Shown here piece after piece: positions 13,726 through 37,544 of a stretch of DNA of 64,000 nt. This DNA is from Psammoneis japonica (taxonomy: Eukaryota): NCBI GenBank assembly GCA_008632985.1, contig QPGO01000033.1, forward strand, positions 124,001 through 188,000, read 5' to 3'. The translations under genes and the position numbers were made by a program. Within the stretch, counting starts at the first letter, position 1; every line of letters begins with the position of its first letter. The notes beneath the pieces were generated by a model. That model did no database searches, was not told the DNA's origin, and saw only the letters and a program-made list of their open reading frames with translations.

Positions 13726-14400
13726 ATGTTTGACATCGAGACGGACGAAGATGCCAGGAATGTCACGGGCTTGCTGGAAGCATTGCCCGAGACAGCTCGT
13801 GTTGTTGCAGGTGGTTTCACTTTGTTGCACTGTGCTTGTTGCAACCACTTCTTGAGCCTGGAGATGATTCAATTTTTGGTGAATCTCTTTCCACATGCAC
13901 TGCAATGTAAAAATGGAAGCAAGGCGCCCCCTTTGCTTTTGGCATTCAACAACAGCTCAATCTCCCTGGATGTTGTTCAGTTCATGGTTGAGAAATGCCC
14001 ACAGGCACTGCTGTAGAAGAAAAGGCTGGAGGTTCCGGCAAATCCATTGAAAGTGCTGAATTTTGCCATGCACTTGGTGAATCAGCACCCAAATGCACTG
14101 AGTCATGGAGACAACCTGGGGTTGACTTGCCGTTGCATTGTGTTTGTGGAGATGAATCCACTTCCCTGCAGGTCATCGCCATTTGTTGGATTGGCACCCC
14201 AGTGTGTTGAAACAGAAAAATGACCACACAGGATGCTGCCTTGTCATCCTCTTTGTGTTCAGTCCTGGAAGGACATTGAGCACCATGCAAACATCCTCTG
14301 CCACCTCCTCCATCCATCCCTTTCTAGGTTTTTCCAACTGTGCAGTCTTTGGAGCCCAAAAACAGTCCATGAGACTGACCATGGGAGCTTGCATGATGCA
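13726..14400 (+). pseudogene. Decayed ankyrin-like (LPLH-repeat) gene
   Basis: TLLHCACCNH.LSLEMIQFLVNLFPHAL, SLDVVQFMVEKCPQAL, DLPLHCVC..SLQVI; contains stops and frameshifts. Confidence 0.6.
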
Positions 14401-17400
14401 CCCCTGGTCCCAAACTTTCTGTGCCCCATCTGTCATGCATTGAATTTCAAAGGTTGATCCTTGAATCCATTGTCATCTGCAGTGTTGCAGAAGCACCCCT
14501 TCTTTGAACATGGGTGCACCGTCACATGCCACTGGCCACTGCTTGGGAGAGAGCCAAAGCCAAAAAGAAGTGAGGGCCCTTGTCGCAGCCCTGCCAAAAG
14601 CTGTTGAGCACTTGGGCCAGGGTTTCAGAGCCAAGATTGCATCAAGCGGCAAGGAAGAAAGAGGAGGCTGATCATGCAACCCCTGAAGATGCCCACTTGC
14701 ATCCCTGCACTGTCAACAACAGAGCCGGCACAAGGCTTCAACCCAGGCCCCGCTGTTCTCCTGATGCAGGTGGTGGCAAAATGATTGTGCAGTCCGTCAA
14801 CACACCACACCAATTGAGAGCAAGGGTGCACAGGAGCCATGGTGCCCACATTGATGCAATCTGCTTGTCATGCAACCTGAGGGGGTGGGCAGCCCAGGCC
14901 ACCATCACCAATGGCCACATCAGACACAATCAACAAAAGATCAATCCAACAAGAGCAGGGAAGGCACCATTGCTGAGCAGGCAACCACACAGCTGTTGCC
15001 AATGAAAGAACCCAAGACAAGCTGGTGCTGGAGCTCAATGCATGTCACCAGGAGTTGCACGTTTCAGCACCTGCTTCCAAAGAAGTTGCCTGGGTGACAA
15101 GAAACACCTCCACAGGGACAGTCAGAATGTTGAGAAAGACAAGGGGAGCTGTGTGCCCCACCCAACCTGTCCACAGCCTTGTCAACCAGTCCATTAGAGG
15201 AGAAATGCAATGGAAACCCCATGCCAGCACCAAAACCTCATCTGGGGCAAAACTGTTGTGTGAAGAAGTGCAAGCCACAGGGGATTGGTGGGTGTGTTGG
15301 GAATGCCACAGGATGGAACAAGCTTCCCAGGTGCAACAGGTCCTCCTCCAAAGAAGACTTGGGTTGCCAGAGCTGTCAGGAGATGAAGCAGGATCTGGCC
15401 CTCTCTCATGTCATTTCTTGTTCTCCAGGGGCTTCAACTGTTTTGTAACATCCTTGAGAGTTCATTGTGCAACTGTTGATCTCAACATGTTCTGAGTGGT
15501 CCCCACAAGCCTGAGCAGACTTTGCTTCCATGCTGGCACATTCTCTGCCTTCTCTGCAAGAGCCCCAACCATTCCTTGGAGCTCCATCACTGCCTCAAAG
15601 CCTGAGCTTGTTGCCCTGAGCTTGATGCACTTAAAGGAGCCACAGAGGGGGGGGGGGGGGGGGGGGGGNAACCCCAATGCTGTGCGCTGCTTGGCATCAC
15701 ATCCTGGGTTTTGAAGACTGGTGCCCACAAAACATGTGACTGTGCATGCTTGATCTGGGTTGCCTCCCACTGTGGAAGTGAACACACCCAACTGAACTTT
15801 CTCAGGGTCTTCAAAGATCCCATGAACCAACCTGGCAGTGATGGACCAGGCTTGCTTTTCCAAGAACTTGCCAAGCTTTGTGAGTGCAACATCAGCAAGG
15901 ATTTTGATCTCAGCACTTGCAGTCCTCCCATCTGAGATGGCAGTGCTTCTTGGCGCCAGCATTGTCAGAGGTCCAATGGGACTGTTCATGGGTGGGCACC
16001 TTGTCCAAATGGGATGGGTGGAGCCCAAATGCCTGTGCAGACTTGGTTGAGCCCAAGTCTGGAAGCTGGGACATTCTGTGCTGAAAGCCCGCCAAGATCC
16101 TGGCATTTTTGTCATTTGCTTCACCCAGCCAGAAAGAAAATGATGGAGGGCTGAACAAAGCTTGGCTCCCATGATGCCATCTGAGAGCAGGTTGACATCA
16201 GCAAGGCAACTGCAGGTGCAAGGGACAAGAAGTGCTGTGCCATCCGCGATGCCTTGCGCTCACCTGAGCAAGACCCCACTGCCCCCAAAACCTTGATCAA
16301 CAACTTGTCAGATTTAGCTTGAAGCTCACTTTTGTGCTGTGGTCCAGTGGTGTGAGGCAAGCATCAACTGAATGAGAGTGCAAAGGAGCTGATCCCAGTG
16401 CTGCTGCCTGCACATCAACACTAGATTCTCACACTTCAAGAGACAGCACCTTGTTGGGCAGTTGACTGTTGACTGCTCTCACAAAGCACTCCACTCTTGA
16501 GGGAGTCCATGTCTGACAAGTGAGAGGCAGCAGCACTCTGTCTTTAACCCTTGCCAGGAGGGTCTCACACACAGCTGCTTCCTTGCATTCCATCAAGGAA
16601 GCTCTGAACTCATCCTCTTGGTGGGGCAGCCCTCTCCTTGCTGTTTTTTTTTCAGGACTGGGAATTTCTGGCACCACCCCAATCTACCAGAATTTCAGCA
16701 GTGGACTCTCACTTGACTGCAACACACATTGACAGAAAACCACCATCCAGAGTTGGTTGACAGAGAAGCCCACATCCAGTGTTTTGAGGATGGCCACCAA
16801 CCACTGTTCAAAAGGTTGGAGTCCCCCACCCCCGCCCTTGTGCTTCACAGTGCACACTCACCTGCCTTCTTGACACAAAATGCAGCATGCCACATTGGCC
16901 CCTTCTGGCCAAACGATGTGACAACAAGGCAGAGGAGATGAAGGAGACACACCTTCCTCCTCCTGCCTGGCTGCAGCCCCCCCCCCCCCCCAAATGCTCC
17001 TGCTCCACCAGATCCAAAAAATGTGTCCCACACATGCAGGGTGGTCTTGGCCATGCTGGCCACATGATGACTGACACACCACTGCAAGTTCACCAATGGC
17101 TGGTTGCAAACAAGTGACCATGCCCTGTTTCACCTGCTTGATGTCTGCTGGGAGATCACCAAAGCCAGAAAGACTGCCACCAACACTTGAGCCCTGAACC
17201 CAGGGTGTTTCTGCTGTGACAACCCCCTGAAGATCCATCCTGGGAGGGTGGAGGAGAGGAAGATGGTGAGGAACCCAATGAGAGCAGCAGAGAAACCACA
17301 TTGGACCCAAGTTGATGAGCACATCATTGTTGAGACCAGAAGTGAAGCAATGAGACACAATGACAAGAGAAGCAAAAAAAGAGGTCCTTTTCCAAAAAGC

Positions 17401-17633
17401 TTCAGTGTGATCCAGTCACAGTGAACAGTGTTGTTCCTGTTCCAGCAAAGCTGAAAAAGTGAGAAGAGAAAAATTGAACCATGTTTTGACAGGTCACAGA
17501 AGACTGAAGACCCTGACGGGTCAGCTTGATTTGTGTTTGGATGTTGAGGTTGCTGCTGTGGTGATGTGAGGGGTGGGGTTGAGGCAAGGCAGTCATGCGC
17601 TCTGGAGAGCAGCATGCATTGCACCCACTCCTC

Positions 17634-17825
17634 TGTTTGAGTCTGTCCATCATTGGATGGATGCAGTGGCTGACGCGTTTTTTGGTTTGCTTTCCAGAAA
17701 CTAAGAGACTTTGGAATGATGTCTGTGACATTCTGAAGATGTCAGTGGAAGACCAAGAGATCTGCTTGAGGATCCTCTCACAATCTGAATGGATCACATT
17801 TTGTTGTTTTGTTTTGTTCTTGTCA
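17634..17825 (+). repeat. 5' LTR (internally deleted relative to the 3' LTR; 3' end approximate)
   Basis: Aligns with 24607-24865; begins TG and ends CA. Confidence 0.85.
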
Positions 17826-17842
17826 AGTCACTTTTGGCACTT

Positions 17843-17852
17843 CATCAGAGCC
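17843..17852 (+). promoter_or_regulatory. Primer-binding-site remnant (tRNA-iMet type)
   Basis: CATCAGAGCC just downstream of the 5' LTR; canonical (TGG)TATCAGAGCC with a TA->CA change. Confidence 0.55.
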
Positions 17853-17873
17853 ATCCTCCAGCTGTCTGAGACT

Positions 17874-20800
17874 GTGGCATTCACTGCAGCACAAACCACC
17901 TCTTTTTTGAGGACAACAACCAGATGGGTTTGCCCTGTGCAACACGTGAGCAGTTGGCAGTTGAAGGATTGGAACAGGTGAACAACCTCGCCGATTTCAA
18001 CAAAGATGGTCTCAACCAAGTCTCACAGAACCCCAAGCATCTGGGAGGCACTGTTCCAGATCCCAACCCTGGTGCAGCTGCTGGAGCTGTCATTTTGACA
18101 CCAGCATTTGTCACAGGTGCCAAGAGCATGATGCATCTCAAGGTCACCAGGCAAGCAGTGCAATTCTACGAGAGTGTTGGTTGTGAACTGTTGGCTGCTG
18201 ACATGCACTGGAGCCCAGTCCTCAGGAACTTTCAAGAAGCTTGGAAGGCACCGAAGGGCAGGAAGGACAAGGATGACCCCAAAGTTCCAAGGATCTCCAA
18301 GTCACTTCCTGTTGTGAAGTGGACCAAGGCTTTTTGTGACCACCTGCAGCATGCAATCGGAACTTGGGTTGTTTGACTTTCATGCGTCACTTGGGAGATG
18401 GTTGATGTTGATGCGGCAGCTCCTGCACCGGACACAAGTAAACCCCACTTGGATGAACATGGTTCACTCAAAGACAAGCTTGTGGCTTGAGCCAGTCATG
18501 CTCATCCTTCATTTTGAGAGGACAATTCTGCACGGTGGACTGTTCTTTTTGGAGGAAGCAACCTCTGGAACCTCACACACAGCTTCAATCAAGCCATTCC
18601 AGTGTGGGAAGGATGGAAGGGGTGCATGGATTGCACTGACATCACAGTGTGCTGGAGAGGACAAATGGGTGGCTGAACTCAAGAAACAGGAGGAGTTCAT
18701 CCACAATCGGAAGTGGAAAGCTCAGTCCAATTTTTCCCTTGATCGATTTGTTTCTCAGCATTGCAACAACTTCATCTCCATGCAACAGTGTGCTGAATGT
18801 GTCACCTTCCAACTGCCCAATGAATGCACAAGGGTCACACACCTGTTGGATGCAATCAAGACCTCCGATGCTCCACTGCAGGCTGCCATGGCCCTGGTTT
18901 GCAACAACATGGGACAGAATGGCAAATGAAGTGATTTTGAAGCTGCTGTGGCCCACATCTCACCATGCAATCCTGTGGCAAAGAAGCAAGCTGCAAAATG
19001 TCCACACACTGAGGTGTCTGGCATTGACTCCAGCAACATCAAGTCAGGTGTTGGAAGACTGGTGTGGAGCTTTGACACCACACCCATGCCAAGTGTTGCA
19101 AGTTAGAGGCTGAACAGAAAGCTGAACTGAAGGAGTGGCAATCAGCACGGAGGGATCTTCTGCTGCAAAGAAAAGGGATGGAAAACCTGAGTCACCTGCC
19201 AATGGTTCACAGAAGAAGATCAAGAAGATGATGTTGGAAGCTGTGGCCTCCAAGCCAGCTTTCAGGAAAAGGCTGAAATTGAGTCCAAAGATGTCAAAGC
19301 AGGTGCCCACTTGCTCTCCCTTGTTCAGGCGGCATCGTGCACACAGACTCCAGCTCCTCCTCTTCCCTGCCCCCATCCACCACCACCTGTGGCTACAACG
19401 GCTCCAGCTCAGGCCACGTCAGTTCAGTTCAAGCCACCCTTGGTTTTGTTGCAGTCAATCTTGCGGCATGCCAGGACCAAGAAATGAAACGTTGGGATGG
19501 TGCTGCATTTCAATGTCTCTCCACTTGAGGGGAGAAAATGTGCCATCTGTGTCATGGAATTGCAGTTGTTGATTCCCAATTGTTCTGTTCTTAGATTTGT
19601 TGATCACCATGCAATCTCTGATGTCACTTCAGAAACAATCAAAGAGACTCAAGACAAAAGTGGGCATGCACCAAATTGGACTCCCACGCCAACATGGTTG
19701 TTGTTGGAAGAAGCTTGCACACGTCCCAAATGACACCGGTCGCACCACTCAAGTCAGTCCCTTCAATCCTGAGTGTGAACTGATGAAGGACATCAGAGTT
19801 GTTGATGCCCTGCTGGCGTGTGGCTGCCTGTGCTCTCTGAAAACACATTTGCTGGTCTTGCACAACACTCTTCATGTTCCAGCAATGGACCACAACCTGC
19901 TTCCACCCTTTGTGCTGCACCAGGCAGGGGCAATTGTCAACAATGTTCCCAAGATGCAGACAAGGGGGAGGGAGCCTGTGGAAGATGACCATGCTCTTGC
20001 ATTCCCAGAGACAAAGACAAGGATCCCATTGTCACTCTGGGGTGTGTTTTTGCACTTTCCAACCAGATGTCCTGCGATTTAGGAGATGCAAGATGCTGAT
20101 GACGTCCTGGCTCTCACTCTGTCAGGACACTCCTGGAACCCTCACTCAGATTCCCATGCTTGCAATGAAGAGAGCATGTTGGGTTGGGCAGGAAACATGT
20201 TGGACAAACAAGACTGAATCAGGATTTTGGTCAAAGACCCACCTGATGAAGATGAGGGTCTCCAACTGTCCTCTGTGGTGTCAAGTGTTGAGTGATCATC
20301 GACTCCAAATTGCTCCTTGTTGATCACTTTGAGGCTCGTGACGACTTGAGTGGATGCACAGGTGTCATCCGGGAAGCTGACAATTCCCGTGCGGTCATGT
20401 GTGACATTTTGGCCACTCTTGACCCTGTCTCACTTGCTGAAGACTTGCAAGATCAATGTGACATTGGGGTTTTTGCAGCCTTGGCAGGATCTACAAGGAT
20501 GTTGATTTTGACATTTTTGAGGATGTTCAACTTGAAGACATTGTTGAAGATCTCATGGAGCATTTTGAATCTAGTCCTGAGATCCAAGTTGGGGGAACGA
20601 CTGCACCCAGATTGAAAGGTGCATCTCCAGAACACTTGTCCAAGATCTGGAGGATCAGCACCAAGGATGCAAAACTGACCATTGGCAACACCACCCAACT
20701 TCTTCGATGCTCTCACAATCCTGCTCTCTCAAGGAACTGTTCCACGAATGACAGAATGCTGCAGTGCCGTCAAACTGCCCAGCAGTTCTTTGTGGATGCG

Positions 20801-23800
20801 TTCTCTGCAAGCAAGAAGGCTGGCAAGTCAACCAGAGGGTGTTTCTGCATGCAACTGTTTGTCGCTGACAAAGGATTCATGCATGTGGTGCCAATGCGTG
20901 CCCGCTCTGAGATTCCACAGGCACTCAAGATGTCTGCCAAGGAAGTGGGTGCACCGGATGCGCTCATCTGTGACAGAGATTTGGCACAGAAGTCTGATGA
21001 GATTTGCCAATTTCTTTGTTCTATTGGTGCTGATCTTTGGTTGCTGGAAGAAGGCACACCATGGTCAAATTGTGCTGAACTCTACATTGGCTTGCTCTAG
21101 GAAGCAGTGCGGAAGGACATGAAAGAGTCCTCATGACCTTTGCCATTTTGGGATTGCTGCTTTGAACGATGGGCCCACATCAACAACTTGACAGCTCGAA
21201 ACCTGTTTCAACTTGAGGGGAGGAATCCACATTTCTCTGTGACAGGGGAGGAGGGTGACATCTCTGACCTTGCCCAGTTTGGATGGCATGAATGGTGTCA
21301 TTTTTGAGATCACACCAACCCTTTTCCATTTGATCATGAGGCCCCAGGACGTGTGCCAGGTCCTGCGAAAGGTGAAGGAAATTAAATGGCTCAATGGGTG
21401 CTGAAAGGGAACAGCAATGTTGTCCCACAACATCCAGTGCAACCTCTGTCCATTGCCAAGTTAAACAGCATCACAGAGAAAAGCAAGCGCAAGATTTTTG
21501 ACCAATGCATTGAATCGCACTGGGGCTCTGCTGCTTGCCAGGTGTCCTCCACCGGCAAACAATTCATTCCGCATGAAGACAAAGATGAAAAGCCAAGAGA
21601 CCTCCCTGATTTTGATGACCCAGCCAATGCCTCTGGGAATGCCATTGACCCAACACCACTGTGCGACAAGCCAGTTCACTCTGAAGTCGCCTTGCCCGAA
21701 GGTGACAAGATGCAACAAGCTGAAGTTGTTGGTCATGTTGTGGATCCTGATGGTCAGTTGGTCGGCACATGCAATGACAAGCTGATCAAGAATGCCTTGG
21801 TCTGTGAAGTCGAGTTTCCTGACAGGGAGGTGAAAGAATGCGCTGCCAATGTCACCGCGGAGAACTTGCTCTCTGAAGTTGACTCTGAAGGCCACACTCT
21901 CAACATTTTTGACAGCACACTTGATTTTGCCAAAGACCACACTGTGGTGACCAAGGACAACATGTGTGCCAAAGTTGGCAAACACAAACAACTGGGCAAG
22001 ATGACATGCGGTTGGAAATTCCTCATGTTGTGGAAGGATGGGACCGAGTCTTGGGTTTCACTCAAGGACATGAAGGAATCACATCCAGTGGAGACTGCAG
22101 AATTTGCAAAGGCCAGAGATGTTGATGATGAACCAGCTTTCCAATGGTGGATGCCATGCACTCTTCACAAGCAAGGTGTCATTGTGTTGGCAGCCAAGGC
22201 ACGTGTGAGACGTGTGACACACAAATGTGGTGTCAAACTCCCCAACACTGTGGAGGAGGCACTTGAACTTGATTGTCAGAATGGCAACAAACTGTGGGCA
22301 CTGGCAATTGAGAAGGAGATGCATGATGCGGGTGTGGCATTTGAGATCTTGGGCAATGACGCTGCAACTCCTGTCAGCTGGTCCAAGCAATCAGGTCACT
22401 TGGCATTTGATGTCAAGATGACCTTGGCCAGGAAGGCTCGATGGGTCCCAGATGGACACAAGACTTCCAAACCTGAAGGCTTGAGACGCTCGCTGGAGTT
22501 GTGTCAAGGGAAAGTGTGCAAGTCACTCTGACTTGCGCTGCTTTGAATGACATTGACATCATGGCAGCTGACATTCAGAATGCATGCTTGCAGGCTCCTT
22601 CATCCCAGAAGCACTGCGTCACATGTGGCCCAGAATTTGGACTCAAAAATGTGGGCAAACATGCTCTTGTTTGCCGTGCTCTGCATGGTGGCAAGTCAGT
22701 GGGACAAGACTTTTGGAACCACCTGCATGCTTGCATGTCTCACCTTGGGTTCAAACCTTGCAAGGCTGATCCTGATGTGTGGATGCGTGAGGCGCTCAAG
22801 GCTGATGGCACTGAGCACTGGGAGAGCATGTGTTCTTCTTCACACAGATGATGTGCTGTGCATTTCAAACAATGCTGAAGAGATTCCACAGAAGGAAATT
22901 GGCACAAGTGCTTCCCATTGAAGGAACCATCAATCAGACCACCAAGTCTGCACCTTGGCAGACACCTGCAAAAGGTGGAGCTTGAGAATGGTGCCAAGGC
23001 ATGGGCACCCAGCTCCTCGCAGCACACCCAAGCATTGGTTGAGAATGTCGAAACCCATCTGGATTCAAAGGGCGTGAAACTCCCAACCTGGGCCCCCGCT
23101 CCACTTGGCAACTCTTGTCATCCAGAGCTTGACATGAGCAGAGAACTGTCCTTGACTGATGCTGCTCATTGTCAGTCACTTGTTGGTGTGTTGCATTGGA
23201 TGGTTGAGCTGGGGCGTGTCGACATTTGTCTGGAGGTGTCCATGATGTCATCGCGTTTGGCTTTGCCATGAGAGGGACATCTTGATCAGGCACACCATGT
23301 CTTTGCACACCTCAAGAAGCACCACAACACCAAGATGGTGTTTGATCCCACCTGCCCCACCATCAATGAAGCGCTGTTTGCATGACAAGACTGGATGACT
23401 TCTGAGTTCAGTCTTGCAACCACGGAGGAGATGTCTGCCGACATGCCTCAAGCTTGAGGTCTGGGTGTGATCCTTTGTGCCTTTGTCAATGTGGGCCATG
23501 CAGGTGACTCAATTGCTTGTCAGTCTCACACTGGCTTTCTCATTTGCCTGAATTCTGTGCCTGCTTGTTGGTTGTTCAAGAGGCAGACGAGAGCATTGAG
23601 ACAAGCTCAGTTGGGTCAGAGTTCACCAGCATGAAGCAGTGCACAGAGCACATTCATTGGCTTTGCTGCAAGTTGCAAATGATGGGGATCCCAGTCAATG
23701 GGCCAGCACATGTCTTTGGTGACAGCCAGTTGGTGCTGGCGAGCACCTCCATCCCTGACTCAACGTTGAAGAAGAAATGTCACAGCCTGGCTCACCACTT

Positions 23801-23900
23801 CGTGCACGAAGGTGCGGCTCGAGACAAGTGGTGAACGGCACATGTCAACACACATTTGAACCCCAGCAATCTTCTCACCAAGGTGCTCCCATCAGGGGAG
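17874..23900 (+). pseudogene. Decayed gag-pol of the copia element
   Basis: Fragments 17924-18929 (gag), 19597-20082 (PR), 20555-21100 (IN), 21386-23271 (linker/RT), 23517-23834 (RH); many TGA stops and frameshifts. Confidence 0.9.
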
Positions 23901-24127
23901 AAGCGCAATCGGTTTGTTTGAATGACCCTGCACTGTCTTGGAGGGAAGGTGGAGCAGGCCATCTTGTTGAACCAGCCACCTGCCTGCGCGGAGGGTTTTG
24001 TTTGGAGCTCCCTGTCGACGGAGTGGGTTTTTGTCTGGAGTTCCCCACTTGATGGGTGTTTGTCAGAAATTTGCCATTGCATGATGACGACTTGTCCCTT
24101 TGCATGCAATCTAGCTTGTTGACTTGT

Positions 24128-24575
24128 GCAGCATGCATGCAGACAAAAGGTCATTTTTGTCACGCCCTTTGTGACATTTAAAGGCTGTGACACGTCGCCG
24201 TGATGCATTGGCTCTCATTGGCAGCTGCACATTGCACTCCTCCCCATGTGTCACGCGTCCATGCGGCTCTTTGCCAACGTGTGCTGACACTGCACGGTTT
24301 TGGCGGAACAGTGTGGGTACGTGCGAAGGAACACACAGAACTGCACAGAGTTTTGCGCGTTCGACAGTGATCAACGTTGCTGCAGACAACTCCCACTCAG
24401 GGTTTCGAACCCCTGGCCTCCTGCCTGATGGTTGCGATGAACCACTCCGCTGTGAATTCACAACGCAGCATGCATGCAGACAAAAGGTCATTTTTGTCAC
24501 GCCCTTTGTGACATTTAAAGGCTGCAACACGTCGCCGTGATGCATTGACTCTCATCAGCAGCTGTGCATTGCACT
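24128..24575. repeat. Two 111-bp direct repeats (24128-24238 and 24465-24575) flanking a ~225-bp core
   Basis: Near-identical copies starting GCAGCATGCATGCAGACAAAAGG; four differing sites, three of them TG<->CA. Confidence 0.92.
24391..24460 (-). ncRNA. tRNA-derived Pol III head (SINE-like or tRNA pseudogene)
   Basis: Minus strand: A box CAGCGGAGTGG (24452-24442; consensus TRGCNNAGYGG with T->C) and perfect B box GGTTCGAAACC (24411-24401) inside a CAGGG/CCCTG stem; 30-nt spacer. Confidence 0.65.
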
Positions 24576-24598
24576 TGACCAATTCTCTAGAGCAGATT

Positions 24599-24606
24599 GA
24601 GGGGAG
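24599..24606 (+). promoter_or_regulatory. Polypurine tract
   Basis: GAGGGGAG immediately before the TG of the 3' LTR. Confidence 0.8.
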
Positions 24607-24865
24607 TGTTTGAGTCTGTCCGTTGTCGGATGGACACACAGTGGCTGACGTGTTTTTTGGCTCGCTTTCATTCCAGCAGAAAACTGCTGTGTGTGCTCCA
24701 GAGAGCAGCAGCAGAGTCTGCCGTCACTTGCCAATGCTGTAAATAAGACTTTGGAATGATGTCTACGACACTCTGAAGACATTGGCAGAAGACCAAGAGA
24801 TCCACTCCAGGATCCTCTCACAATCTGAACAGATCACGCTTTGTCATTGTTTTGCTCTTTTAGCA
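24607..24865 (+). repeat. 3' LTR (3' end approximate)
   Basis: Follows the PPT; aligns with the 5' LTR. Confidence 0.85.
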
Positions 24866-25060
24866 CCTCCAAACAAAGATTCTGTGGGTCCATGCTCATT
24901 GGGCGGTCTTGCTTCAAGCAAACCGGTGAGAAAGCAAAGCGAGCAAAGACAACATCACATTTTACTCTTTTTGCTTGATCTCCTGCCGGCACCCATCGCA
25001 ACTCAATGAGCCATCTGAAACGCTGCTCGCAGACCAGTCTGCTGAAAACTGGGGCCTGCA

Positions 25061-26468
25061 ATGGGGAAGAAAAAGAAGGGAAGCGCCAAGAAGAAAACGG
25101 ACACAAGCACTCAAGACCCCGCAGTCGCACTGGACCCAAGCTCCTTGGAATTGTGCAACAAAGCGTGTGGACACATGCAAAAGACACGTCAACACTGGGA
25201 TGCGATTGAAACCCAGGTGAACAAAATTGAAAGACAAGCGCTTCATTTCATGCTTCGAAAAATCATGGCTGCAGCGAATTTTTTCGAAGAGAACACATTT
25301 GGCCAACAAATCAAAGGTGTTCATTTGTGCACATTTCATGATCTGCTGGAGGCGATTGACGTTGATGGAGAGTCGTTGTTTGACGCCTTTCGGGCACGTG
25401 CCGCATGCTTGGCTGGACTTCGCACTGTTTTAGACGCAGAACAAAAACAGGACATAAGCTGGATCAAGGAGGAGGTGAAAATGAGTCGAGAATTTGTCAA
25501 GGTGCTGGCGAGAGAGGAAGAAGTTGCTGGAGGCCTTCACGAACTGTTTGAACAAAATGGAGACACCAGCGCACAAGTTGTTGTGCTCTCAATCTTTTCC
25601 ATCGTCACTGAGACAACAATGGCTTTTGTGGAACCACAAGAATCTCGACCTGCGAACAACAAGCTGGACCGTGCCCTGCTCGAGAAAACTGCTCAGCAGC
25701 AATGTCCCGACGACTTTTGCAAAAACAAACTCGATGCCACCAGAAAGCACAATGCAGCATCCGAACAGTGGGCTCAAATTGACTGGAAAACTCCAGGCTC
25801 AGTCAACATGTGGCACACCTGCGAAGCCCACATGTGCAACCCTCATGTGCCTGTCTCCTCGCGGAACGGACCCACCCACTGTTGTCGTTGGATGTTGCGC
25901 AAGTCGCTTGTCAAGGATCTGGAACCATGGCCGAAGCACTCCGAGCAGCTCCCGACCTCCATCATAATTGGTCTTCAGACTTGGCGGCATCGCGATTGGA
26001 GGCAATGCTTGATTCCCCGTGCACCACCGAAGACTGCAGTTTCCACAGCACGATCATGCACCTTGGAGAGTGCGCCAAACAGCAGGGCAACACTGCGTTT
26101 CGAAAAGGTGACATTTCAACCGCACTTGAATGCTGTGCTCGTGCCGCTGGATTAGTCCACTGGATTGGACACCAAACAAAGCCATCTACTTGAGCAAAGC
26201 TGCCCAGTGCTTGCTCAAACTTGAACAATGCGAAGCAGCTGTCCGTGCCTGCACTTCTGCCATCCAGATAGATTCGAACAATTTCAAGTCGTGGCTACGG
26301 CGCAGCATTCAACGCGCCATGTCTACTTCCGCAGGACTTCAGCTGAGCGCTGAAGAAAAGCAAAAGAATGAAGCACGTCTCATGCAATTACGCAAGCGAA
26401 TGTCGCCGGATAGTGCCTGCGACGCCTTGGCCCGTGTCTACAATTACTTGGCAACGATGGCGAGTTAG
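25061..26468 (+). pseudogene. TPR-containing host gene, TpA-hypermutated and frameshifted
   Basis: MGKKKKGSAKKK start; 364 aa with no Tyr; TPR segments KQQGNTAFRKGDISTALECCARA and AIYLSKAAQCLLKLEQCEAAVRACTSAIQID. Confidence 0.7.
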
Positions 26469-27979
26469 CATTGGCGCAAGGGATGTCACTCATCAAGGCA
26501 TTGGCACAGCAGTTCAATGGAAGTCATGATCAAGATCGTCGTTCTTGTCTGGCGTTGACTTAGCTACTGCTCTCAAAATGTACTCGACTACTCTAGCTCG
26601 ACGCGCTTTTCCTGGCTTGGAAAACAACGAAAACTTGCTTTGCCTGTCCAGCTTTCAGTACGAGGCAGCCGTGGCCATATTGGAGAATATCAAGACTTTG
26701 CTTTTTCACTCCGGATGATGTCGAAGCTCTGATCTTGCGATCCAAGTAGCGTTTCAAGTGGGAGAACTGGATATTTGCCAGAACGATATTCTCGCCCTCA
26801 AGGATCGTAGCAATGGCCATGACCCGACGATTGCGGGATGGAGGCAAAGCTCAAGGACCGCTCCAAGAAAATCAACCAAGATTTAAGTGCAACGCCCTAT
26901 TGCGCCACCGATCTCAAGGACTCCAACAAGGTGCACGAAGTCATGGTGGTAAATATCGGCATGGTCTCAAGACAAAAAATATCCAAAAATCCGTTAGCAG
27001 AGTTATGGGCATACCCAACGGTGGCGACGAAATGTTTCGCGACGCCCGGCAAGTGCAAGAAGAAATGATTGAATGTCACATGATTCCTACCTTTCGCGAC
27101 TATTTCTGGTGTAGCGCCAATTCGATTCGAATTCTGAAGGAAAAATGGAACCGTCTAATACGGACCAGCAGATCTGTATTACGAGCTTGATCGACCCCTC
27201 TTCTTTGGATGCATCGTAAAACGTCTGGCTCCCTTTGGTGACAGTCGGTATGACAACAGAGGACCATTTGCGGCATCGCAAGCCCGCGTGACAGAGAATC
27301 GCTATTGACGTCCAGTATTTGCATGAAATATGGGCCCGTGCCATGGCAGGTGATTCTAGTTTGTCGTTTGCGTCAGCAGTCGAAAGATCGACTGCTCCTG
27401 AAATTGTTCCTCGACTTGCAAAAGGCCGAGCTTGCATCCCGCTCTCCCAAGTGAGCATACTGGGCCAGCTCTTGCTTGTGGTCTTGAATCGTGGGCCATC
27501 AATGATTCCTAGCGCATCGTGGAGGTTGGACAGGTGTTTAGAGCGCTCGTGCCCCCTGTGGTTACCGTGGCAATCGTTGGAAGTGGTTGATTCTGCTGGA
27601 GGTGTGTTGGCGGCTAGCGTTTTGGCGCAGTGTAGCCAGTGCAAGCAGCAGCTGCGCATTCATTCCTATTCTCGTGTAGTGCTTAGAATGGCCATGACGA
27701 GAAGGGGAGTTTGGTTTGTCGAGATTGCGAAAGTGGAATCCGACATTTCCGTGGCATGTATCATCTCTCGAGGAAAGATTTGCATGAAAAAGCAGCTTCG
27801 GCCGCCATGGCGGCTTTATTTTCCGACCCGGAACCCCATAAGCAGATCTTGACGATTGCTATGCAGCAGACGCATATTCTGATGAGCCGATTGGACTGGA
27901 TGACGGCAGCATTTGATCTTATCGAGGATCGCCTCATGGGCGATGCTGCGCCTCAGTCATTGGAGGCGATCGTCGACCT

Positions 27980-28705
27980 TTGAACGCCACATCGAATGCC
28001 ATGTTGGCCGAGGAAGAGGAAGAAGATGATGAGATGCAATGCAGTGGACAGCAAGAAAACGAGGATGTCGACGAGCATTTGAGATTGTTGAAGGAATGTT
28101 CCGTCAATGCCATGCTCTCGCTGAACTTATTCGGATCTCTTGATGATGTTGGCGATTTGGATGCGAATGCCAAAGTATGTGCAAATTGTGGGAAAGATGA
28201 TGCCCCTCAGAAATGCGCGGGGTGCCGTGCTCTGTGCTTTTGTTCCCAAGATTGTTTTACGAATCAATGGAAAGCATCACACAAGAAATGTTGTCTGCGG
28301 GCGGAAACTGTAGCCTACATTTTTGATCGCTTGGTGAACACTAACCAGAATCTGACACTCGTCGAGTCCAAGACTCTGGCCAGCATGATTTCGGGCCCTT
28401 TGATGGAATCAGAACGGCACCGGCGCAAGCTTGGCAAAGCTCACCCCCAAGGAGCTGCCCAAATTGCATCCCTTTTTGAAACTGTGGAAAAGAGCGAGGG
28501 TAACTTGGACTATCTTGAACACCTCTCAATGATTTTGCTCGCCATCTGCAGTCGCAGAGCTGGTCGCAGAGGTATGGACACTGACGGTCTGTTCGGTCTA
28601 CAAAGAGCTCTCATGGATGGTGATTTCTCTTCGCCTCATAACATTATGTTGGCCAAAGTCTTCAGATTGATGGGTCGATCCAGCACTCGCACACGCTCGC
28701 CGTGA
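27980..28705 (+). CDS. MYND zinc-finger protein (start uncertain; possibly the 3' part of the TPR gene)
   Basis: CANC...KCAGC...FCSQDC...W...HKKCC. Confidence 0.75.
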   Translation: MNATSNAMLAEEEEEDDEMQCSGQQENEDVDEHLRLLKECSVNAMLSLNLFGSLDDVGDLDANAKVCANCGKDDAPQKCAGCRALCFCSQDCFTNQWKASHKKCCLRAETVAYIFDRLVNTNQNLTLVESKTLASMISGPLMESERHRRKLGKAHPQGAAQIASLFETVEKSEGNLDYLEHLSMILLAICSRRAGRRGMDTDGLFGLQRALMDGDFSSPHNIMLAKVFRLMGRSSTRTRSP

Positions 28706-29154
28706 GAGAATAGGAAGGAAGAACCAAGCAGTTTCTGCTGTTGCATATTTTAGATACTCGGATATCATTTCTTGGACTGTTTTTGTTGTTGGCGTGGGTT
28801 CAGCAGATAGAGGTCGCTCTATGAGCTTGCCTTCTTTCTCCTTTCAGAAACGCAAGACTCTAGAATAGATCGAAGCTAGTTAGCGTAGGAGTCGACCTAC
28901 TTCTTCTCGAACGACTGGCTGCAAAATATCCTTCATTTCACAGGATAATGAGCCACTTGTTCCAAACACAACACACGTCACCCATCAGCCGCGACATATA
29001 CCATAACAATTCACTGTATGTTGGATGTCCTGTATGAGACTAGCAAGACTACTGTACTGAAACCTGAAATGGTGGCTTTTCTCTCTAGAATCTATTTCAG
29101 TAACAAAGTTTAGGTAAATCAAGCGACCTTCCGGTTGCGTTTGGAATCGTCCAC

Positions 29155-29236
29155 CTCTCTCGATCTTACAAAAGGTACGTAGACAAGAAGACAATCTCTC
29201 TCGATCTTACAAAAGGTACATACACAAGAAGACAAT
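29155..29236. repeat. 41-bp tandem duplication
   Basis: CTCTCTCGATCTTACAAAAGGTAC(G/A)TA(G/C)ACAAGAAGACAAT present twice. Confidence 0.9.
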
Positions 29237-32200
29237 CAGGCCGAAAGAAGCGTGCCAAGCAAGCTGACGAACACACATTTGCGCATCAGACGTCGGTACG
29301 TTCGTCGGAGACTGATTGGGGTAGCTGTTTGAGGTGATGAAGGTTGGCTTGATGGAGAAAGACCTGAAATAATGCTGGGAGGCGCAGTTGATGCGAATGG
29401 GTCCTCAACGCCAGCTTTGTATTTGATATTCCCATTGAAGACTCGACCCGGATACGACCTTCCAAATTTATACTCGACGCCTCGTCCGACCAAGACGCTA
29501 ACTATACCGTCGCTGACAAAGACATCCCCTTCTTTGATCCCGGATGTTTGATCTGAATACCTTAGTTCGGGTGTTTTCACGGGAAGCGAAACGTAGAAGG
29601 CCTGTTTCCGTCCACTCTTTATCCTCACAGGTTTGAAGAACTTTGGTAGCTCCGTTAACTCGTCTTCACCCTTTCCAATCACAGGGACTGACTGCACTAT
29701 TGTCCACAAACCATCGGCATTGTTCTTCACGTATTTGCCGGAACGGGTCCAAACAGTTACGACAACATTGGAAGTGAGGCGAATAAGAATGTCAAACCCA
29801 ACTATATCCACATCTGTTGCAACAGTGAGTTCGAACATGCATCCTGTATGGCACGACGCAAAGATAAAATGTAAGGACAACCACGCAAAACGAGCTTCCT
29901 CGTCACACGAAGCGGTGAAACGTACCTGCTTGTCCATTTCCCGCAGCATCAGTGGTAAAGAGAGTTGCCATCGCACCGGACTGAACTGGAGTAGAAGTGG
30001 TAGGGGGGGTAGGTAAAAGAGTCGGTAAAAGAGTGTTCACCGGTGGTGTTGGTCCAGCAGGGATACCAGTGCCAATCTTGTACTTTAGTTTGCCGTTCCA
30101 TATTCGGTCGGGGTACGTCGTTAGGAAAGGGTACTCCACGCCTCTGCCTATTTTCAGCGAAACAGTCCCATCTGAGACAAACCGTTTCCCCTCACTACCT
30201 TTCTCGGCATCAGTATATCGAAGGTCATTGGAATCCACAGGCAGCGTGATGTAAAACGCCTGTGTTGCACCTTCCGAGACCTTGACGGGGTTCGAAAGAT
30301 GTGGAAGCTTTGTGAGCTCAAATTCACCTTTTCCCTTTACGGTAGCAATTTGGACGATCGTCCATAACCCATCGTTATCGTTTGTGACGTAATGGCCTGG
30401 ACGAGTGAAGATAACAACGTCGACATCTGATGTGAGGCGAGTGTGAATGTCAAAGCCTACAATTTCAACATCTTCCTTTACGTCAATATCGAACATGTTG
30501 CCTAAAGTGCCAAGCAAAATGAAATTGGTAAGACTTTAAAAAGCAAAGCAGCAGCTGAATCGCAACGACAGCCTTGTCACACACCTGACTGTCCGTTTCC
30601 CGCAGCATCTGTGGTGAAAAGCGTTTCAATCGCTATGGGTGGCGGAAGTGTTGGTTGCGGTGGCGGAGTTGGTTTTGGTGCTTCTGTGTTCACACAGGTG
30701 TTGGAGTGCGAACATTGACCGGTGAAAGAGTTGCAGGTATCAACTGTACATGAGTCGTTGTCGTTACAATCGGAATTCTTTTCACACTCCACGGCTGTTC
30801 TAAAACTCGCGACTTTTGCTACCACATCATTAATGCGACGTGCACAGTCATTGTACTCGTCACCCAATGGTGCAGAGTTTACTCCATCATACTTGAACTG
30901 AGGAAACCAGATCGCACGAAACCGCGAAACCATGAGTCTAACGGCAGTGGCATTACCGTGACGTTCGACTGCGCCGCACTACACTGACTTACCTTTCTTA
31001 GTGGAGTTGAGAACCTCTGGATTCGGGGACACCCACCTCCTTTATTGTTGTCACATTGATCAGTAATACAATGGTAAGCTAGTATGGTACGAAACCGGGC
31101 TTTGGGATCTCTCCATCCAAAGTTGTACTTATTTTTGTCCACGCAGTTTTCGCTTTGCCCTCGATCATGCTGGCAACCTATCCAAAGAGCAATGTGGGGA
31201 AAAGCTGCGTTAGTTGCAAAACGGTCGTGGAAGACTCGCGTTCACACAAGGACTGGCTCACCCATGTTGTGTCCTAAGCGCGTCATAAGATAGTTAAAGA
31301 GAATAGAAGACAAGCAAGTCAGTTTCGCACATGACTTTAATATGAGGACCGCAGGAGAAAAGCGAAAAACGACTTACCAATCTCATGCCCAAAGCTGAAG
31401 ACACCAGTAGAACATTTCCAGTTGGTGACAGAGAACATCTTTTTTTAATCATCACCGCCGCACCAGTGAACAATAGAGAACAGCGTGACACTGGTCAAAT
31501 GAGTGCAGCAAGAGGCATCAACATTTCAGCAACTGAGAGTCACATTTTGACTTACAAAACTATCTGATGGCCCAACCCATGCGGTTCCACAAATTCCTCC
31601 ATCAGATCTACCCGCCACAATCAGAGCAACAAGATCGGCTCCGTATTCATCACGTTTTTCATGAACGTCATCCATCTTCCCGTCGTCACTGTAGGTGATA
31701 TCAGCAAGCGCAGTGGTGGCTTGCCTGTATTTTGTTGTAGGTTCAACGTAGGTCTCGTCTCTGTAGGCATGAACAAGACGCAGTTGCGTATGAATTCCAC
31801 TTTCGGTGTATGCAATGTTGGTCTCTTCGATCGCTAGTTCTATCAGCCCTATCATTCCTTCGGTCGTAGCTTGGTTGATTCGACAGTCCACAGGCTTAGA
31901 TATTCGCGCACACTCTGTAGTATTTGATGAGTCGAGGCAAAGATTGGGGTGGGTTAAAAGCAATGTACTCCTGTAGTCAAAGGCATTCGCGATTAAGTTC
32001 CAACCAAATAATGCACATCCAACATACAGTACCTGCATCTCTTGTCCACACAACCATTACGTCAATAGTTTCACCATTATCACTAACAAGCTTTCGTCGA
32101 TTACCATTCTCGTCGAAATCAAATCGTGGCTTTGACTTTACAACCTTGGAGAGTTTTCTCTTCACATTCTTTAGCTTTCTATTTGGAACCATACCTTCCT

Positions 32201-32660: not shown

Positions 32661-33058
32661 TGCGCACGATTGTAAGGGGGGGTTAATCTCTTCTTAGTTC
32701 ATTAGGTTGAAACTTGTGCCGGTGCGAGAAGAGGTTTGGCCAAAAGATGATGAGAGTACGTGTCCCTGCGGCTTCGCTCTGCTGTGGTGGACAAAAAAAG
32801 TGAGATCGGCAAACTCAAAAAGAAGAATTGACGAAGATCAGTACGAGGCATCGTAGGTTTCTACGTAATAATTGTTTGAAGTTTGAGTCGTGGCTAGTTT
32901 TGCGGTGAAAAAGAGCTCGAGCGTCCGAAAGCGCAAGTGTCAACGTGACATCATGATGACGAGAGGCAGCTGTTGGATCTTCTTTTTTCCATCGTTTTGT
33001 GTTTTGCGTCCGAAATGGTAATAAAACGCAAGGCCGTACCAGCTGCTACCACCTCACC

Positions 33059-34121
33059 ATGAGACAAGAACGCCCAAGCCCAACCTCTATGGAGGGTATG
33101 ATCTGGAATGGTAAGTGAACGATGCAGCGGCGGAGTGCTTGAGAGATCTGAGTGGGAGACGAGAGGCGCCGTCATGCAACTGCCTTCCATCCCCAAAAAC
33201 CGTGACTCACGCATCCGCCCCCGCTTTTGCTGACAGCCAACCACATTCTCGAAAAGGCCTGAATCCTGTAAGTGAGATCTAATAAAATCTGTGACTGATT
33301 GATGGTTGTCATGAAAAACTAAATCCGGTAATTTTCTTACGTCGACATCGGCTGCTTCCATCTTATCGCATAATCCGAACTCTGATACTTAGAACATCAA
33401 TGGACTCCCCAAGTCTCTCTTTGACAAGTGCGTTGGCGTCGTAATTCTCAACGCCGTCCAAGCCGGACTTATATTCTCGGGAACCGTTGGCAGTGGTATT
33501 GCCATGAAGAAAACGGCGACCGGGTGGTCTCCTCCCTGCGCTGTCGGGCTCGGTGGCTTTGGCTTTGGACTTGTGGGTGGCGTTTCTGCTACTGATCTTG
33601 TCTTTTTCATCATGGACGACGAAACCATGAAGTCGATTGTCGCTGATCATGGCTTTAGCTTTGGTGCTGATCTTCAGCTTGCCATTGGGCCGTTCGGCAG
33701 ATCCGCAGAGGTCTCTGACATTATTGGAAACGGCGAGCTCGGCGCAGCCTTTGCCATTGCCTACTCCAAGGGTCTCTTTGGAAGTTTTCAAGCCAAGGGT
33801 GCCAAGCTTGGTGTTCGTTCGTTTGTCAACAACAAGTTCTACAACAGCACCGCTTCTGGAACAGACATTTGCTTCACTCCTGGAAGTGTCAAAGTCCCTG
33901 AAGGCAAGGTTACCATGCTCCAAGAGGTGTATGACAAGCTCAACAAGTGTGCTGCCGGACTTACCGCCGAACCCGATGCCGCTGAAGAATCCAAAAAGGA
34001 AGCCGCCAAGGAAGCGGCTGAAAAGGAAAATTCGGTCATCAAGAGCGCGCCTGAAGCCGAGGTCGTTGAGGTGCAAGATGCTGTGGATTCCGAGGCCGCC
34101 AAGGAAGCCGCTCATGCTTAA
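33059..34121 (+). CDS. SYLF/Ysc84-domain protein (copy A; 1-bp deletion in exon 2 creates TGA)
   Basis: Exons 33059-33110, 33237-33267, 33393-34121; GLIFSGTVGSG, WSPPCAVG, DLVFFIM, GPFGRSAE, YSKGLF. Confidence 0.85.
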
Positions 34122-37100
34122 TGCATTGCATGAGAAGCATTTTTTTTATTCATATGAAAGTAAATTTAATATGTTGTGGTGATTGAATGTTGAAGAATGA
34201 TTGGCAAAAGGATGCATCAAGTGGGATCGTCTAGTGACTTTAGGATTCTACCTGTACGTCTTTACTAAAACCTGTGTTTTAATACACCTTCAAGGACATG
34301 TTATTTTTGCAACAGGAATCACCAAACCAAAATGGTCATAATCCAAAGTACAGCAAAATCATTTTTTCGATTTTCTCAATAACCAATCTAAAGGGAAAAA
34401 ATGTTCTCTTGCTTATGGGCTTACTACCGTGCCACACCATCCTCGAGTTGGTGGTGCTGCAGCCTCCGCTGGCACAGTGTGTGTCAAGCAAGAGGACCCC
34501 ATCGTGGCCAGAGCTTGATTGTTGGGTTTGGGATGCTCCACACCACATGTCGGAGCATTTGCAACATGGAAAAAAATGGCCACTGCATGACAGCAGCTGG
34601 CAATCGGAACACCATCACCAGCAGCACAAGAAATTGGCAGCAACTGAAAAAAGTGGCCATTTGCCAGAGAAATGAGCTGTCTGGACAAACATCACTTCTT
34701 GAAAAGGCGATTGCACGTGCTTGAAATGCAAACAGGATTTTTTGCTGATGAGCAGAGGAAGAGACAGAGATGTGACTAAGGAGACATTTAAATTGTGAGA
34801 CTGCTGGTGAGTGATTTGGCTTGATGTGTGGGGCTGCAATTCTTTTGCCGACAGCCCCCACCTTGGGCCCCTGAAGGCACCCCAGCAAGAAAGTTGTCAC
34901 CCTCTCCAGCAATGCAATGAAGTGCACTGCCAAACCTGCCACCACTGGAAACCACACAATTTCCCCTGCCCTGACCCGCCCCTGTGCCACTTGCTCAGGG
35001 CCTCCAAAAAAGACTTCAAAATGGCATCACTGTGCTCATCATCAACAGCCATCAGAAGACTGCAGGAGATCAGATCAGTTCTTTTGCAGATGCCCAGCAA
35101 CAAGAAGATTGTTGAAGAGAGTCGGATTTCTCTGGGAGGCAGTCAGATGTGTTGGTGGTCAGTCCATGACACAGCAGGCACAAATGTCTTCAAAGTTCAC
35201 ACTGCAAACAACACTTGCCAGCTGGTCTGGTTGTGTCAGCCAGTCAATCACAGAGACTGATTGTTGTGGTTGCAGCCTGGACCTGCAGCATGATGAGTGC
35301 TTTGCAGCCTGGAACAACCATGAAAAAATTTTGGACTGTCAAATGGCACATCCAAGCAAACAAGAGCAGGATCCATGGTTTGTTGACAGAAGAACAGCAT
35401 TTCAAGTTGGTCTTAAAATTTCTCCTGGAAAAGCCATTCTTGAGACATGGAGACCAGCTTGAAAATGTGATGGATGAACCAATTGAGAAGATTGCAGCAA
35501 TGGTGGCATCTGAGCATCACGTGCTGTCCTGCATCCTGGTGCCAATGAAGGGTGTTGCACAGAAGTTTCACTTGATGGCAATGGCAAAGGTGGTCAAGCA
35601 ATGGGCAGCAGAGCAATTGGCAGCAAAACAATGGGATGAGGAGGGGAATGGAAAGTGGCAGTTTCAGTGGAAGTGTCAACAGCATGACCGTTCCACCTCT
35701 TCACAGATGTGTGCATGTGAAATCTGGCAGACAAAACCACTTTTTCCTGTTGTTGGAGAACAAATGACAACACCCCCACTGCAACATGTTTGCAACTGAA
35801 AACAGCAATTAAAATGTCTTCAACTCAAGTGGAAGATCAGGATCAGTGGGAGCCAAATGCCAGCTCTCATGCTTCTTCCTCATCACTTCTTTCTTGGCCA
35901 AGGGGGGGGGGGGGGTCACTGCAACAGATCCACTTTCTGACAGCTGTCTCTGCCTTTTTCAGGTCTTTGCATTTTTCAGTCCACCATGCCTTTTTCCAAA
36001 GAGAGCTTGTCTAGATTCTGATGCACTTTTTCTGCCTTTGCTTTGGTGAACATCTGTGCAACAGCTGGAGTGCAACAAGTGCCAGAGCTTTCCAATCTGG
36101 CCAGACATTTGACCCCAGTTCTGGATGTTGTTGTCAGTGTCATCCTGCTCATTGAAGCCAATTTTAAATGCCTGGGTCAAAAGACTCCTGTCACACATGA
36201 GTGGGAAAAGCACAGTTGTTGTTTTTTGAAAATCTTTCTTCCATTTGACCAAAGACCTCGGGATCATCTTCCAGGCATGCCCACTGAAAACAGAGGTCAC
36301 ATGCAGTGAGAGTTGCACATGTCCAGAATTGGGAGAATGACAATGCAGCCGCCTCTGAAATCTTGAAATCCATGGCCAGAAATGATTTAGAAGTGGGGCC
36401 TCAGTGACTTCTTTGACTTTAAGCACACTGCAATGAATTTGCCAAAACATTCCATGTGTCCAGCTGGAAGCCAGCCAACTTTGGATTGAGCTGGGATTTT
36501 CTCAACCATTTTTTGGTGGCAGATCAACAAGGCTTTGATCAAGACAAAGAGAGACATTGGTGGCTGGCAGACCCCAAATGCACAGGGCCAATGCAAGGAC
36601 AAACACCTTCCAATGATTTTCAAGGCCTGTCTCACCACCATTGCTGCAAATCACTTGGCAAGTGGGCTCCTCAATCTCTCCATGGCTTACAAGCAAGCAA
36701 TTGCACCATCAGATCCTGCTCTGGAGACAAGTTGCAGACCCAACAAGTTGCAGCTGACTGACTGGGTTGGCAACGATGTCAAAGAACTTGATGTCAGCAG
36801 TGTCTCACAGAAGAAAACCATTGGTCATTTGTGTTTGTTTGTTTTGATGATGGTGCAATGCCCACGACTAAAAAGCACACTGGGAAAATGAGGCGCTGTG
36901 GTTGGTGGTCAGAAAATTCCATTTTTGTCTCTAAAAGATCAAATGGATCAGTTTTCAGTTGAACTGTGAGCGCAGCTGTGCTCAATTTGGGCTCCAAGCC
37001 AAGAGAGCTGCCATCACATTGACAATCTTTGGATGCTGTTTGCTTGCACCATGTCATCTCCGTTTGCACCATTGGAAACAAGAGGCCAAGAGCATGCTGA

Positions 37101-37544
37101 CAATGCAACAACAACTGCATTAAATGAGCAGGGCCACAGCCACATGGACCCAGTCTTCACCCAAGGCAGACATGTCTTGTTTTGTTTTCAATGCTTTGTG
37201 GGTCTGATCAACATTGACAGCAAACACAAGAACTCCCAACAGTGACAAGGTGGTGGCATCTTTGTGTCTTGCTTGCTGAACTCTAATTTGTCCCCCCATG
37301 CACTGGGCATCTAGAGTGGGGTTCTGAAGAAAGAATGTTGCAGGTGGCAAGAACGTGTCAACTGTGCTGGACCATCTAGATTGCTGTCATTCCAAGCATT
37401 TGAAGCATTGGTCATTGGCTGACAATCACTCCTCGACTTGTCCATGTTTGTCACAGTGGCAGTCGCCAAGGTTGCACACAATTTTCATGCACCAAAAACT
37501 GCGTGGACGGTGACCTGAACTGACCTTCACACATCAACAGATGA

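Follow-up and report, generated by a model that had tools for sequence, protein, structure and literature searches.

Does a mutational process that has remade a retrotransposon also alter the host gene beside it? The question is raised by a window of 64,000 nt from contig QPGO01000033.1 of Psammoneis japonica (GCA_008632985.1), which is the whole stretch of DNA that was analysed; all coordinates below are positions within it. A degenerate, copia-like long terminal repeat (LTR) retrotransposon on the plus strand (17634–24865) ends at its 3′ LTR, and 195 bp further 3′, at position 25061, a host gene of about 3.6 kb begins on the same strand (25061–28705; N-terminal region, TPR repeats, long middle section, C-terminal MYND-like finger). 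A first-pass annotation, made from the letters alone, had claimed that the loss of TpA dinucleotides and of tyrosine codons continues beyond the 3′ LTR into this gene. The loss is real, and we think it probable that a DNA-level, TpA-directed mutator aimed at the transposon-bearing domain reached beyond the LTR as well and worked on the adjoining 1,287 bp of host DNA.

The depleted stretch (24866–26152, plus strand) comprises the 195 bp upstream region of the gene and the first 1,092 nt of its coding sequence. It contains four TpA steps (at 24963, 25431, 25455 and 25965), where 51 are expected at the 0.040 per bp of the window's own host DNA (Poisson P = 1.5e-17), and about 92% of the expected TpA has thus been removed. 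The same length of host DNA never holds fewer than 26 TpA in 637 windows (median 52). Expressed as the ratio of observed to expected counts (o/e), TpA stands at 0.05 as against 0.54–0.62 in the window's host DNA; the o/e of TG (1.67) and CA (1.36) is raised over the host medians of 1.18 and 1.19, and AT, AA and TT are nearly unchanged. CpG had been described as retained. It is, with 62 CpG in the stretch, but the o/e of 0.75 is lower than in any of the 637 host windows (lowest 0.78, median 0.99) and amounts to a mild reduction.

TpA comes back in a single step. By maximum likelihood the change point lies at 26153; its 2-lnL support interval, 26084–26269, is inside the TPR region, and right after the step (26153–27500) the TpA o/e of 0.51 is normal; in the downstream, normal part of the gene the o/e is 1.29 for TG and 1.13 for CA. 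The landmarks at which tyrosine had been said to return hold good (TA at 26187 in the motif AIYL, and at 26439 and 26445 in RVYNYL). The length of the leak, put at ~1.4 kb by the first-pass annotation, is 1,287 bp, and the gradient with distance that it predicted is absent; its interpretation is accordingly supported in part, namely for the leak into a host gene.

The gene itself is defined by a single homolog, a protein of 1211 aa here called P0001 (E = 5e-11), which was the one match in an exhaustive protein search. Its matching segments follow one another in order, residues 20–1205 over window positions 25175–28657, with 29–73% identity per segment. Residues 356/357 fall at 26163, and the homology crosses the TpA step uninterrupted, at 55.6% identity both before it (25921–26163) and after it (26175–26309). 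Because P0001 is colinear across the step, the TpA-free piece is very unlikely to be a separate insert or transposon cargo. P0001 matches TPR_2 (E = 1.1e-8), and an open reading frame (ORF) of the window at 28001–28702 matches zf-MYND at an E of 0.00068, which is below the cut-off. The gene starting MGKKKKGS, which had been called a host TPR gene, is larger than the small gene of 1.4 kb implied there; it does not stop at 26468 but runs to 28705. Pfam matched no family to the 364-aa ORF at the start of the gene (25061–26155) and found no transposon domain in it. Word-based protein searches gave no relative of this ORF; with P0001 they returned P0001 itself alone at near lengths and nothing at shorter lengths. 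Metagenome scans with P0001 and with a 234-aa C-terminal ORF likewise gave no relative.

In the window sequence the gene shifts frame 12 times, eight times in one and the same direction. The TpA-normal part holds ten of these changes, and one of the 12, at 26163, coincides with the TpA step. Another, near 25840, takes the 364-aa ORF out of the frame that matches P0001; its last ~100 residues are out of the homologous frame, and the TPR-like motif ALECCARA, which had been read as part of the same protein, is in a different frame. The 12 sites were checked for homopolymers, and no clear link was found. Sequencing data were available as runs from one sample of one study, and depth is given here as summed read-contig depth. 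Compared with the window, the run contigs show three gaps in 26883–27289 (410 bp) and five in 27569–29000 (1,432 bp), and none in 24546–25815, where the frame is continuous. The frame changes may be assembly indel errors or real decay of the gene. Two local repeats were each considered as the cause of one frame change: a possible 13-bp duplication at 25828–25853 (10 of 13 positions alike, by eye) and a 7-bp direct repeat at 26147–26166.

The consequences for the protein were read from the comparison with P0001. The 364-aa ORF has no tyrosine. In the frames of the depleted part that homology supports, the 367 codons include 16 for Cys, 15 for His and again 0 for Tyr; the first 356 residues of P0001 include 9 Cys, 8 His and 12 Tyr. 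Taken together, Cys and His (31 of 367 codons as against 17 of 356) are 14 in excess in the depleted part, a number close to the 12 missing Tyr. Eleven Tyr sites of P0001 can be placed in the depleted part, where the window has four Cys, two His, two Phe, one each of Glu, Lys and Ser, and no Tyr; the six Cys and His are at 25748, 25820, 25829, 25852, 26131 and 26134. The normal part offers 12 such sites, occupied by six Tyr, three Phe and one each of Cys, Gln and Lys, the lone Cys being at 26229, 77 bp beyond the step. The two parts differ both in Cys/His (Fisher, P = 0.027) and in Tyr kept (P = 0.014). As far as the one homolog shows, this agrees with the expectation, voiced in the first-pass annotation, that Tyr would be restored at these positions on comparison: P0001 does not share the Cys/His of the window, and its Tyr faces Cys or His at 6 of 11 depleted sites but at 1 of 12 normal ones.

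Depth is 60–75 in 25020–26222 and 51–72 in 26223–29000. The LTR and the flank are joined by a run contig of 1,270 bp (24546–25815, depth 60.6), which has three differences from the window and no gap. Depth at the single-copy level, together with the colinearity of P0001, identifies 24866–26152 as single-copy host DNA. The possibility that the gene is transposon cargo present in many copies, which had been raised against the claim of a leak, does not fit this depth. Among the run contigs listed, from the one sample, no empty-site join across the LTR element was found.

The adjoining element (TpA o/e 0.05, CpG o/e 0.30) has the structure of an LTR retrotransposon. The 5′ LTR (17634–17826, plus strand, limits approximate) was delimited by alignment with the 3′ LTR (24608–24865, plus strand), which ends in CA at 24865. 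Each LTR has TG at its start and CA at its end, directly 5′ of the 3′ LTR lies a purine-rich tract, and the 4-bp sequence CCTC on the outer side of each LTR forms the target-site duplication. The copia assignment is based on a weak RVT_2 match at 22477–22848 in one of the 22 plus-strand ORFs of the element (E = 0.0061; 16.6 bits against a cut-off of 31.6), and among the same 22 ORFs no Pfam match to integrase or gag was found. Depth inside the element is 160–710, compared with 50–75 outside it, which indicates a multi-copy family.

Of the 189 positions at which the two LTRs align, 32 are mismatched. Fourteen of the mismatched positions make up seven dinucleotides in which TG faces CA, six sites have CG opposite TG or CA, one site has TA opposite TG, and 11 positions are other changes. 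An element inserts with two identical LTRs, and TG cannot come to face CA by one change; a palindromic ancestral step must have been hit on opposite strands in the two copies. The LTR pair thus shows that the TpA-directed process acted in place, on both strands, after the element had inserted, and the TG/CA pairs exclude RNA editing before integration as their source. A flank copied back into DNA from edited RNA was also considered and rejected, since the flank keeps register with the remainder of the gene and is hit on both strands.

A 510-bp insertion inside the element (24084–24593), a highly abundant short repeat, keeps CpG and five TpA and is for this reason regarded as younger than the element that carries it. 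Joints of 24083 to 24594 reveal other copies of the element that do not have the insertion. Summed depth reaches 20,672 and 89,890 in two bins of 23817–24618, as against ~60 for single-copy DNA. The insertion holds two 111-bp repeats of 94% identity, which differ at seven positions; six of the seven belong to TG/CA discordances (three of the four difference sites), and CpG is kept. This indicates TpA as the ancestral step at these sites and shows that TpA was lost faster than CpG. Part of the insertion resembles a tRNA T-arm by eye; ARAGORN and Rfam did not confirm this, giving no match in the window, nor in 23700–24900 at E up to 1.

TpA-free DNA forms two tracts in the window, 13478–26152 and 34426–50050, with a TpA o/e of 0.05–0.09 and raised TG and CA. 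Both tracts hold retroelements and the first also includes host DNA. All three tract edges other than 26153 are also steps in TpA. CpG behaves differently between the parts of the tracts. Host-like DNA of the window has a CpG o/e near 1.0; the TpA-free block upstream of the LTR element (13478–17633) has 0.08 from 13900 on, and an older block at 34.8–39.0 kb has 0.12. Next to the latter, a LINE-like (long interspersed nuclear element-like) element on the minus strand (39000–48400; RVT_1, E = 1.8e-7) has lost TpA (o/e 0.09) and has a CpG o/e of 0.74. Its five long ORFs contain two Tyr in ~2,260 residues, and one of them, of 1,031 aa, contains none. This element is surrounded by the older block without TpA and CpG (34.8–39.0 and 48.4–50.04 kb). 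With TpA gone and CpG at 0.74 in the LINE-like element, TpA loss seems to be saturated well before CpG loss. Copies of a host gene at 33049–34121 and 50579–51691 (78% identical over ~1.1 kb, in the same orientation) flank the second tract, and 15.6 kb of transposon DNA thus lies between tandem paralogs.

Immediately 5′ of the LTR element, 17000–17633 has neither TpA nor CpG, and its depth (59.7 in 17000–17400) is at the single-copy level. The LTR element sits on a boundary of CpG state, with CpG-free DNA upstream and CpG-retaining DNA downstream; this boundary either predates the insertion or formed later. On its left side the first tract loses TpA after 13477, with CpG near normal up to ~13800. 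Edges 13478 and 34426 both have a zone of 300–450 bp without TpA in which much CpG is kept. An ORF at 13720–14013 (plus strand) has an Ankyrin match (E = 9.1e-5), the sole Pfam match among the 15 ORFs of 13478–17633; over the 64 ORFs of the TpA-free blocks, Pfam matched two, by Ankyrin and by the weak RVT_2 hit. Ankyrin repeats usually have Tyr at the position that corresponds to the LHCAC read in this ORF. The mutator may have overrun a second host gene here. A comparison for terminal repeats (within 13.4–17.7 kb, and 34.3–35.6 against 48.4–50.2 kb) defined no structural ends of these blocks, the best local scores being 29–36 and the shuffled maximum 32.5. The upstream block also contains a single N, at 15669.

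The TpA steps that survive carry information on the process. In 27 kb (13900–26152 and 34800–50040) 100 remain, and their context is non-random: CTAG, TTAA and CTAA/TTAG are enriched 3.2–4.2 times, ATAT is absent (0 of 100), and ATAC/GTAT and GTAC stand at 0.13 each. This pattern suggests a mutator that prefers RTAY (R, purine; Y, pyrimidine), with YTAR tending to escape. By the genetic code, a change of TA to TG or CA never creates an in-frame stop, but it destroys TAA and TAG. Of the stop triplets, 617 of 673 in one tract and 667 of 775 in the other are TGA, as against about half in host DNA. Long ORFs are abundant on both strands of the TpA-free tracts, so that a frame which stays open there does not point to function. 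A convincing strand bias of the mutator was not found across the depleted stretch, its Cys/His codons and the LINE-like ORFs: TG exceeds CA in the stretch, yet Cys and His codons are balanced (16 TGY, 15 CAY), and in the LINE-like ORFs His exceeds Cys.

The listed differences between the run contigs and the window are the best supported ones; the 34 of them outside the high-depth repeat were classified, and the following counts refer to these. Three of the five differences in the depleted stretch (25657, 26059 and 26072) are TA in the run and CA or TG in the window, and a fourth, at 25273, is CG in the run and CA in the window. TpA sites differ at 3 of 7 in the depleted stretch and at 2 of 88 in 26153–29000 (P = 0.0024). 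Positions 26059 and 26072 are at most 94 bp from the step and lie on a contig of about half depth (34.5). Within the upstream block, at 17322–17323, the window has CA and a run contig TG. The TA differences between window and run may be indirect signs that the TpA process is recent or ongoing, and the TpA frontier could differ between alleles.

How might such a process have worked, and what else could have produced the pattern? A locally targeted mutator would convert TpA into TpG or CpA by T:A to C:G transitions on either strand of the palindromic step. It would have erased TpA from ~27 kb of transposon DNA in the window and run on for 1,287 bp past the LTR, through the upstream region and the first 1,092 coding bases of the gene, where every Tyr codon would have become Cys or His, or been lost otherwise, with no stop made, until it ended in one step within the TPR region. 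It would be of the same kind as the TpA hypermutation of the alga Bigelowiella natans; the chemistry may be adenine deamination in DNA or a mispairing modified thymine, and the target a silenced domain whose edge, rather than the end of the transposon, would set the stop. For the sharpness of the boundary we prefer such a chromatin domain edge to transcription from the LTR or to a recombination or haplotype switch. Several points weigh against this account. A process that spreads should decay with distance, and a step is seen instead. The source of the mutator may have been the older TpA- and CpG-free block upstream and not the LTR element. At 50050 TpA and CpG return together, with no visible overshoot. 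The tyrosine comparison uses one homolog, 29–56% identical in the depleted part, and 23 sites. The run is possibly from the same sample as the window's assembly, which makes its independence uncertain, and beyond the listed differences, of which 34 rows were classified, there are 1,195 further rows.

The step itself admits two other origins. The edge could be secondary: an unmutated allele may have restored the part past 26153, through gene conversion or mitotic recombination, or the assembly may switch haplotype there. TpA does return as a step and not as a gradient, a frame change coincides with it (26163), and the contig that carries TA at 26059–26072 where the window has CA or TG has a depth of 34.5 instead of ~60–75. 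We nevertheless judge a secondary edge unlikely: homology and percent identity to P0001 are equal on both sides, the full-depth contig 24546–25815 shows no unmutated second allele in the sample, and the other three tract edges are equally sharp. A little less likely still is that the tract was set by transcription, with read-through or a promoter of the 3′ LTR exposing single-stranded DNA or supplying a guide RNA over ~1.3 kb, so that the step would mark the end of a transcript; this is a variant of the mutator account and does not contradict it. In its favour, the start of the tract coincides with the LTR, its end is discrete, and TG exceeds CA on the plus strand, but the normal part of the gene already has more TG than CA, the Cys and His codons are balanced, and the LTR differences fall on both strands. 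That 24866–26152 is not host DNA at all, and represents a transposon, a viral insert or captured cargo abutting the host gene, is highly improbable. The LINE-like element at 39.0–48.4 kb is in the same state (TpA gone, CpG kept), and the 364-aa ORF has neither a Pfam family nor a relative in word-based protein searches; against this stand the colinearity of P0001 across the step and 2.5 kb past it, the single-copy-level depth and the absence of a transposon domain. Least credible of all is that no mutator is needed and that selection, codon usage or a sequencing artefact at modified bases depleted TpA. TpA is under-represented in most genomes, and in the host DNA here as well (o/e 0.54–0.62), but the depletion is ~10 times stronger than in host DNA and includes non-coding DNA and both strands, every Tyr is gone where the homolog has Tyr, and the read contigs reproduce the TpA-free sequence with three differences in 1,270 bp.

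The proposed mutator shares features with several known systems. The closest analogy for the overshoot is repeat-induced point mutation (RIP) of ascomycetes, also a genome-defence mutator that overshoots into neighbouring genes: RIP, which is aimed at repeats or transposons, leaks over hundreds of bases to kilobases and alters the proteins of unique genes. RIP changes C to T mainly at CpA, makes TpA and stops, requires duplicated DNA and is active during the sexual phase. In the window, TpA is destroyed, GC rises, stops cannot be made and the flank is single-copy. Decay of CpG in methylated transposons through deamination of 5-methylcytosine resembles the process in that a palindromic dinucleotide is turned into TG or CA on either strand, and the older elements of the window have a CpG o/e of 0.08–0.30; unlike CpG decay, however, the depleted stretch and the LINE-like element have lost TpA (0.05 and 0.09) but largely retain CpG (0.75 and 0.74), so that TpA loss is a separate and faster process. 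APOBEC3 (C to U, in cDNA) and ADAR (A to I, in double-stranded RNA, with a preference for U before the edited A) also hypermutate retroelements by transitions. Both act before integration and would mark the two LTRs alike and on one strand, whereas in the window the LTRs were hit independently and on both strands, and host DNA that was never retrotransposed is included.

TpA hypermutation itself has already been described, in a preprint on B. natans (Mettrop et al. 2026, bioRxiv 10.64898/2026.01.13.699255) that was the only report of such a signature found in our literature searches. According to its main text, mutation-accumulation lines gained 231 mutations in two viral inserts; A>G and T>C made up 230 of them, every one at TpA, and the inserts mutated at ~1000 times the background rate; TpA-poor coding sequences were enriched in reverse transcriptase and transposase domains, and an ADAT2-like adenine deaminase was proposed as the enzyme but not identified (bioRxiv 10.64898/2026.01.13.699255). 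As far as that text describes it, the B. natans process and that of the window have in common the change of TpA to TpG or CpA on either strand, the confinement to tracts and the gain of CpA and TpG. They differ in host and target (a chlorarachniophyte with two viral inserts; here LTR and LINE-like retrotransposons in a diatom-like genome) and in extent, the loss in the window being near saturation (TpA o/e 0.05), compared with 0.45 in the nucleocytoplasmic large DNA virus (NCLDV) insert of B. natans. In the window, unlike in the B. natans account as given there, older elements lose CpG together with TpA and part of a host gene is covered. The genes of the window also have no introns, and TpA makes up 4.0% of steps in its host DNA as against 6.0% in B. 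natans. As a lead to the lineage, a neighbouring LPA1-like gene has its nearest Atlas clusters among diatoms (Bacillariophyta). The words retrotransposon, CpG, flank and spread are absent from the main text of the preprint, whose supplementary tables may list comparable host genes. The passages of the SPLASH paper (PMC9258296) that bear on the subject mention diatoms and hypermutation in unrelated senses. What is new here is thus probably a different lineage, retrotransposons as targets and the overshoot into a host gene.

A wider reading would join these observations, although we put it forward tentatively and with the balance slightly towards doubt: diatom-like algae would run a TpA mutator for transposon control, acting in a bounded domain, with its own context preference, recoding neighbouring genes behind a moving frontier. 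The recoding may amount to all Tyr becoming Cys or His and Ile becoming Met or Thr, with stops removed and none made, and may thus provide a natural, stop-free and residue-specific mutagenesis of transposon-adjacent genes. That the frontier moves may follow from the window/run differences within 100 bp of the step, among those listed. If the reading is correct, the TpA hypermutation of one rhizarian alga would also occur in a distant and ecologically dominant group, and its action on retrotransposons would argue that this genome defence of eukaryotes is ancient or has evolved more than once. The collateral effect on host genes would be like that of RIP, but with Tyr lost, Cys and His gained and the reading frame left open. 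TpA-free DNA would yield many long false ORFs, and mutated genes would appear intact to gene finders. A half-mutated gene with a step edge would, moreover, be a natural experiment on what aims the mutator, be it chromatin marks, small RNAs or transcripts.

Elsewhere in the window, host DNA at 2300–10400 holds families of diverged tandem repeats or paralogous ORFs, with 65–78% identity among segments, and 29236–30633 contains two adjoining, similar ORFs on the minus strand (29.2–30.5 kb).

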